Shown here piece by piece: positions 15,018 to 15,268 of a DNA stretch of 64,000 nt (positions are counted from its first letter, which is position 1; each line of letters starts with the position of its first letter). The stretch covers positions 160,001 through 224,000 of the forward strand of contig CAVVCZ010000004.1 in NCBI GenBank assembly GCA_963746845.1, given 5' to 3'. The stretch is from an uncultured Chloroflexia bacterium (GTDB taxonomy: Bacteria > Chloroflexota > Limnocylindria > Limnocylindrales > CSP1-4). Made by a program: the position numbers and the translations under genes. The notes below the pieces were generated by a model. The model was not told the DNA's origin, did not search any database, and saw only the letters and a list, made by a program, of their open reading frames with translations.

Positions 15018-15051
15018 AAAAAACCGCGGTTCCTGGTTTCAGGATCCGCGG
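15018..15051 (-). terminator. Intrinsic terminator (attenuator) in the metY leader
   Basis: Minus strand CCGCGG-A-TCCTG-AAAC-CAGGA-A-CCGCGG followed by T6. Confidence 0.85.
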
Positions 15052-15102
15052 CCCCGGGACCTGGTCTGTGGCCCCGCGCTCGTCGTCAGGTTGCGCGTGA
15101 CC

Positions 15103-15168
15103 TCAGACCCCATCCTCCACACGGCGGGGCCGCCAGCGCATACACATGGAACGGCGGTTCGTGGTCAT
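15103..15168 (-). CDS. Putative leader peptide MTTNRRSMCMRWRPRRVEDGV
   Basis: Short ORF with ATG-TGT-ATG control codons upstream of the terminator; TTGACG -35-like hexamer at 15202-15207. Confidence 0.7.
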   Translation of the reverse strand: MTTNRRSMCMRWRPRRVEDGV

Positions 15169-15268
15169 CGCCCGGGGATGCTCGCCCGGTCCGGCGCGAT
15201 CCGTCAACCGACGACGCCGAAACGCAACCTTGGCGTCCCGCGGAGCAGGCCCGCGCTAGGCTGGCGCC

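Follow-up and report, generated by a model that had tools for sequence, protein, structure and literature searches.

The leader peptides trpL, hisL and thrL belong to the classical leader-peptide transcription attenuators. An attenuator survey by Lopatovskaya, Seliverstov and Lyubetsky from 2010 reportedly includes Chloroflexi. Classical attenuation has equally been described for ilvB1 of M. tuberculosis (PMC13236596) and for the trp and ilvB attenuators of actinobacteria (PMC1262725). With respect to the sulfur amino acids, a Met/Cys leader, metL, has been proposed as a prediction from RNA-seq before metNIQ of S. lividans (PMC8079986), indirect sensing of methionine is suggested for an upstream open reading frame (uORF) before fthC (PMC11109978), and the mycobacterial polycysteine leaderless small open reading frames (Ms5788A) are tested sensors of cysteine that act on translation (10.1101/834739). 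In the B. subtilis yxjB leader, one stalled ribosome blocks termination as well as translation repression (PMC6851288). The passages of PMC2965389 considered here contain no mention of metY or Chloroflexi, and among the top-ranked records of the open-access literature none dealt with the leader family described here or with a tested Met-codon attenuator.

The locus considered here lies in a window of 64,000 nucleotides, the whole stretch of DNA analysed, from an uncultured bacterium of the Limnocylindria (Chloroflexota). A first-pass annotation had proposed a leader-peptide attenuator sensing both methionine and cysteine ahead of metY-metX and knew of no described case for this pathway in the lineage; S. 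lividans metL, predicted and located before a Met importer, is a precedent for a Met/Cys leader. We consider it probable, on the basis of folding models and conservation, that a ribosome stalled on the Met-Cys-Met leader would permit read-through and metY translation, with both layers working together. The core of this proposal, a leader read by the ribosome and sensing Met, is very probably correct as judged from sequence comparison.

Organisation of the locus

The elements named in the first-pass annotation were recovered on the minus strand (Table 1), including the TTGACG hexamer, the leader ORF with agreeing coordinates and the translation MTTNRRSMCMRWRPRRVEDGV, the tandem ATG-TGT-ATG codons, the perfect 9-nt complementarity of 15133-15125 to 15056-15048 and the terminator, composed of a hairpin at 15051-15024 and U6 at 15023-15018, the end of which is 95 nt from the metY GTG (14922). 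The best matches of the MetX-like protein are MetX, though its score is below the cut-off. Upstream of the leader, in divergent orientation, resides a gene for an AcuI/YhdH-family reductase with a TAGGCT hexamer 6 nt 5' of its ATG (window 15257-15271, plus strand), a distance which suggests that this gene is likely leaderless too.

Table 1. Coordinates of the leader elements and of the genes that follow in the window
Feature	Position	Strand	Basis or remark
metX-like homoserine O-acyltransferase	12497..13588	-	TIGR01392 E 1e-83, below cut-off; start overlaps metY stop
metY, O-acetylhomoserine sulfhydrylase	13585..14922	-	TIGR01326 658 bits vs cut-off 495
Predicted metY Shine-Dalgarno (SD)	14927..14935	-	Sequence; complementarity to H
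Segment I	14986..15001	-	Post-terminator strand complementary to A/A'
Segment H, anti-Shine-Dalgarno	15008..15016	-	Complementary to B (7 bp) and metY SD (9 bp here)
Intrinsic terminator hairpin + U6	15018..15051	-	4/9 pairs with double-sided change
Segment F/G	15048..15061	-	Antiterminator partner (15056-15048), overlaps terminator 5' arm
Inner arm around stop codon	15064..15108	-	15108-15104 with 15068-15064; 15102-15093 with 15079-15070
Leader ORF, 21 codons	15103..15168	-	In-frame start conserved; probably leaderless
Segment B	15113..15119	-	Shine-Dalgarno-like, inside uORF; predicted decoy for H
Segment A/A'	15121..15134	-	Antiterminator strand (15133-15125); predicted hand-over to segment I after read-through
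Control codons Met-Cys-Met	15139..15147	-	By slot, in 163 copies: Met in 156, Cys in 133, Met in 153
Predicted promoter	15178..15207	-	-35 TTGACG 15207-15202, 18-nt spacer, -10-like GAGCAT 15183-15178
Conserved 12-nt motif	15217..15228	-	About 20 nt 5' of -35; possible regulator site / promoter element

A perfect 9-nt stem between the regions 15133-15125 and 15056-15048 arose in 4/2000 shuffles, and the z-score for folding of the whole leader was -1.71 only. In a generic consensus scan, no sigma70 promoter and no terminator were called at the leader. Two RNA runs that contained 5% of the words yielded identical tables, with matches mostly less than 90% alike and 14816-15285 devoid of cover, which is uninformative on expression.

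SAM riboswitches, T-boxes and MetJ/MetR had not been seen at the leader in the first-pass annotation, and for the first three this was borne out: an Rfam scan of 14500-15800 retrieved no family reaching its cut-off and no SAM riboswitch or T-box match up to E 10 at the leader, and metJ (PF01340) was not found in the 92%-complete genome harbouring the window, with E. coli as a positive control. Other places in this genome hold two SAM-I riboswitches as well as two T-box matches that stay below the cut-off.

Conservation and distribution of the leader

The copies of the leader collected comprise 163 distinct ones and 108 new ones from a metagenome scan, 271 altogether after merging of duplicate loci. 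The 31-letter core pattern occurs in 48/137 genomes of the host's own family and in 0/263 genomes of four other families in the class. The exact pattern was present in 96 contig stretches of GTDB, and most of the 80 listed are titled Chloroflexota, Chloroflexia or Limnocylindrales/Limnocylindria, titles from which the assignment to the Limnocylindria is drawn. Since sets selected by the core are biased by this selection, metY genes were also chosen by protein alone. The element was found in 41/42 of the protein-picked metY upstream regions not marked by the pattern; in the one exception (L184), metY stands, by eye, behind a metX-like gene. L191 (127 bases, at a contig end) and two metY genes cut at the contig start (G454:C316, G431:C330) were left out. 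Regions before the paralogues of about 50% identity displayed the element in 0/6 cases.

In the wider class, a covariance model identified diverged copies in the family f4 (5/11 and 6/19 genomes), among them Met-Cys-Met or Met-Ser-Met leaders before Cys/Met PLP enzymes (4/4 scanned). Family f3 gave one weak terminator-only match in 20 genomes, and the families f2 (0/3 genomes) and f5 (0/1) gave none. No convincing copy was obtained with the model from other classes of the phylum; the matches in G482 and G488 (E 0.001-0.006) were discarded as not leader-like on reading. Four f4 copies (L216, L218, L219, L248) are Met-Ala-Met leaders with no terminator before a protein of about 368 aa, for which a 'metE-like' label was dropped upon finding no Pfam match and no NCBIfam match at 1e-15.

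A promoter layout matching that of the window was called in 116/163 copies, and the start codon follows the -10 hexamer (NANNNT) by 6-10 nt across copies, a spacing which points to a leaderless or nearly leaderless message; the leader ORF itself is probably leaderless as judged from this arrangement. The 12-nt motif further upstream, allowing at most two mismatches, accompanies 76/116 of the promoter-called copies, in 65 of these 20-21 nt before the -35, and together with the following -35 it occurs a single time in the host genome; it might be a transcription-factor site. In some copies the motif is a direct repeat. The genus g6 (L039-L051, L173) possesses Met-only leaders (MMxM) with a differing upstream region, and 12/13 of its copies were assigned no promoter-linked start.

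The -35 is present in 180/271 copies, in 162 of which an ATG or GTG occupies the expected window behind it, and this start is in frame with the control codons in 160/162. The distance from start to control codons spans 7-23 codons in nine lengths, with no internal stop, and the spacing between the control codons and the antiterminator strand is constant. In five copies (L037, L052, L151, L192, L193) the Met/Cys runs are lengthened and terminate at the same position. Comparison of the copies shows that selection acts on the uORF as a reading frame. The initial reading of a ribosome-read attenuator is thus well founded in the kept frame, the fixed codon position, the longer Met/Cys runs and the match of the codons to the pathway. 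The dual sensing of Met and Cys originally put forward needs a correction: in the protein-picked copies Met-x-Met is invariant (41/41), whereas Met-Cys-Met is seen in 26/41, which makes Met the constant signal and leaves Cys as an optional one.

The proposed switch and its transcription layer

The mechanism proposed would start when a ribosome enters the leader at its 5' end or close to it. If Met-tRNA (or Cys-tRNA) were short, the ribosome would wait at 15147-15142 and A would pair with 15056-15048, and as a consequence of this pairing the base of the terminator could not close. After read-through, A/A' and B would pair with I and H, hiding the anti-SD and leaving the metY SD open. With plentiful Met, the ribosome would reach the stop codon (15105-15103) and cover A and B, the terminator would close, and in transcripts that escape, H would pair with the metY SD.

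In an alignment of 58 sequences, A (15133-15125) and 15056-15048 are paired in 99.4% of cells. Covariation, which had been recommended as a check, is apparent in the terminator, where one stem pair is doubly changed in 23/58 sequences, and in the inner arm (double-sided change at 9/13 pairs, 79.9% of cells paired), and is lacking in the antiterminator helix, where 0/9 pairs are changed on both sides and only G-C to G-U changes occur. A second partner of the uORF segment, formerly placed at 15077-15070, did not survive as a conserved feature: the fit to segment A demands G at 15072, which is G in 15/58 and A in 39/58 of the aligned sequences, suggesting that the conserved partners of 15077-15070 are other strands. 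According to folding, 15061-15055 is able to close an alternative hairpin with 15076-15070.

Folding was modelled on those 119 of the 163 copies in which metY comes immediately after the leader and every anchor was located, and 40 of these were subjected to equilibrium folding. With the whole terminator available, the hairpin won at equilibrium in the stalled-ribosome models too (median 0.96-1.00 over 40 loci), so that the model requires kinetic folding. In truncated folds, the RNA was cut where the polymerase would hide the final bases of the terminator 3' arm, with ribosome edges at +16 and +13, values which we assume to be appropriate. Here, A holds the terminator base in 116/119 loci when the ribosome waits on the first Met (edge +16) or on Cys (+13); at edge +16, the value is about 0.5 for the Cys stall and 0.15 for the second Met, and once the ribosome is past Trp, A holds the base in 0 loci. 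For a ribosome that has reached the stop codon, the lack of pairing follows from the mask itself. The switch is accordingly modelled as kinetic, with the first Met predicted to be the best-placed sensor.

The post-terminator block and a predicted translation layer

A conserved block at 15014-14986 past the U-tract, absent from the first-pass annotation, can pair with either the uORF or the metY SD. A match to segment I is found in 152/163 copies. In the 58-sequence alignment, I and A/A' are paired in 96-98% of cells with a U-A to C-G change in 8/58, and B:H is paired in 91.1% of cells with two pairs displaying double-sided change. The post-terminator helix is 94.6% paired with double-sided change at 4 pairs (12 cells), values reached by 2/500 and 0/500 shuffles, respectively. 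The first letter of B and its partner in H are C-G in 156, U-G in 32, U-A in 6 and C-A in 0 of 204 copies, and B:H is formed in 96-101/109 loci in truncated stalled models. The duplex of H with its own SD amounts to -12.7 versus -11.2 kcal/mol with swapped SDs (119 loci). From these models and patterns, a translational second layer by anti-SD gating is likely.

The alternative to be weighed most carefully is a classical transcription attenuator only, in which the post-terminator pairing would tidy or stabilise the read-through RNA with no gating of the SD; we regard it as unlikely, though deserving consideration. It would be in line with a weak switch at equilibrium, where H masks the SD in 20-28% of loci in the stalled state versus 42% with the ribosome at the stop (40 loci), and where the metY SD of the window is masked in all four ribosome states folded. 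Equally, H complements any SD-like stretch, B included, and a shortened copy (L150, G048:C4) has lost B and H/I and kept Met-Cys-Met and the terminator. On the other hand, H prefers its own SD within sequence clusters of the 119 loci at all five clustering cut-offs (p 0.0003-0.03, p values which are overstated since kin are not independent), although the effect is as small as 0.2-0.6 kcal/mol, and the H:SD matches of 8-9 bp reach beyond GGAG in several lineages. For B:H no such within-cluster signal was detected (p 0.17-1.0).

The converse, a mainly translational attenuator with a leaky or ceiling-setting terminator, in which the position of the ribosome would decide on access to the SD, is quite improbable. 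The success of the terminator at equilibrium in the stalled models, the weak U-tracts with at most 4 T in 8 at 24/119 loci and the metG copy of the host genome, which has no visible terminator, are compatible with it, whereas the strong covariation of the terminator stem, the U-tracts with at least 5 T in 8 at 95/119 loci and the almost complete pairing of A with the terminator arm argue against it.

Codon swaps and genes behind the leader

The host genome itself contains further leaders. A Lys-Lys-Lys leader on the same scaffold precedes dapB (L224, G000:C8:14667-14836; profile E 0.0012), and a Met-Ala-Met leader precedes metG (L227, G000:C4:1032681-1032755; E 0.043), the latter with a Met-x-Met-x-x-RPR start. 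In relatives, Lys leaders are located before DapB (6/6 scanned), Met leaders before MetRS (2/2 scanned), Cys leaders before a CysE-like protein, a beta-carbonic anhydrase and DUF4395, and leaders with Cys and Met before a NirA/sulfite-reductase-like protein and a sulfurtransferase. Behind Met-Ala-Met leaders of three genomes (L230, L258, L259; two scanned) thrC-like genes are situated, a less plain fit to the pathway. In the host genome, an ORF after a SAM-I riboswitch has what we take to be a thrC-like start (L261). These occurrences hint at a thrC subfamily with a Met-related role.

A small beta-carbonic anhydrase is often found behind the leader (L076, L086, L095, L107, L109, L113, L122, L128, L231, L256 and others), sometimes before metY. 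For one such protein, carbonic anhydrases of the Rv1284 type are the best matches (E 1e-41 to 1e-45), followed by COS and CS2 hydrolases (E 9e-36, 4e-27); by this resemblance, the leader-linked enzyme may supply sulfide to MetY. An OsmC-like gene is immediately behind a Met/Cys leader in L026, L077, L083 and L126, and metY then follows in L077 and L126.

Tentatively, and with a chance slightly short of even, these leaders might represent a modular leaderless attenuator scaffold of the Limnocylindria. A single position of the ribosome would control termination first and afterwards, through a hand-over of strands beyond the terminator, the SD, and swaps of three codons would have reprogrammed the scaffold into a lineage-wide, ribosome-read regulon for amino acids. 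Its targets would be metY, metG and the beta-carbonic anhydrases, which may be COS hydrolases, for Met or Met and Cys, the cysE-like gene and DUF4395 for Cys, and dapB for Lys.

The swaps also bear on two further explanations. A nascent arrest peptide (..W/R-R-P-R-R..) that responds to a small molecule, for instance SAM, in place of codons responding to charged tRNA would be suggested by the RPR behind the control codons in most copies, and is very improbable: the C-terminal tail varies from 9 to 20 residues with differing sequence and two copies (L258, L259) translate the same RNA segment in another frame (..MAMP-S/E-APPG.., by eye), from which the constraint there appears to be on RNA rather than peptide, and the Lys copies retain the scaffold. 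The least credible explanation, to which we assign hardly any weight, is a ligand- or protein-binding RNA such as a novel SAM/SAH switch with an incidental ORF, as a core that hardly varies even at third codon positions and a weak raiA resemblance (E 0.6, 14.7 bits vs a cut-off of 101.3, rejected since it covers the outer helix only) are set against a reading frame kept over nine lengths, the synonymous use of TGT and TGC for Cys (116 and 17 of 163 copies), the Met/Cys expansions, the pathway-matched Lys and Cys swaps, double or triple pairing that accounts for the invariant letters, and no Rfam family near its cut-off.

With more than 270 naturally occurring variants, a construct of small size and codons already exchanged by nature, the family is well suited to testing whether a leaderless ribosome senses Met-tRNA and how transcription and translation are controlled together. 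Equally, the control codons link beta-carbonic anhydrase, OsmC-like, DUF4395 and thrC-like genes to sulfur amino-acid metabolism, in a host lineage of abundant uncultured soil Chloroflexota.

Comparison with known systems

While the attenuation principle is textbook knowledge, the leader family, its predicted second layer and the reuse for Lys and Cys appear undescribed. SAM-I/IV riboswitches and T-boxes also control met genes through a terminator or masking of the SD; as stated, neither matches this leader. S. lividans metL resembles the present leader in a leaderless peptide with a Met/Cys-rich end before a methionine gene, and differs in having an importer downstream and no typical terminator. 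Ms5788A shares the leaderless small open reading frame, a sulfur amino acid as signal, the control of the SD that is predicted here, and a regulon that spans several loci, a sulfurtransferase among them; there, however, control is translational and it is the Cys tract that covers the SD, whereas in the present leader a separate anti-SD exists, for which the uORF is predicted to serve as decoy, the polarity differs and a terminator is added. The yxjB leader resembles the mechanism proposed here in its dual control by a single stalled ribosome and differs in sensing tylosin and in its unrelated sequence. With the classical attenuators the leader has in common the short uORF, codons for the product of the pathway, an antiterminator strand within the uORF that would be freed by the stall, and the intrinsic terminator. 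In contrast to them, it carries a Met signal, with or without Cys, belongs to the Chloroflexota and has conserved pairing that does not end at the U-tract but reaches a predicted anti-SD.
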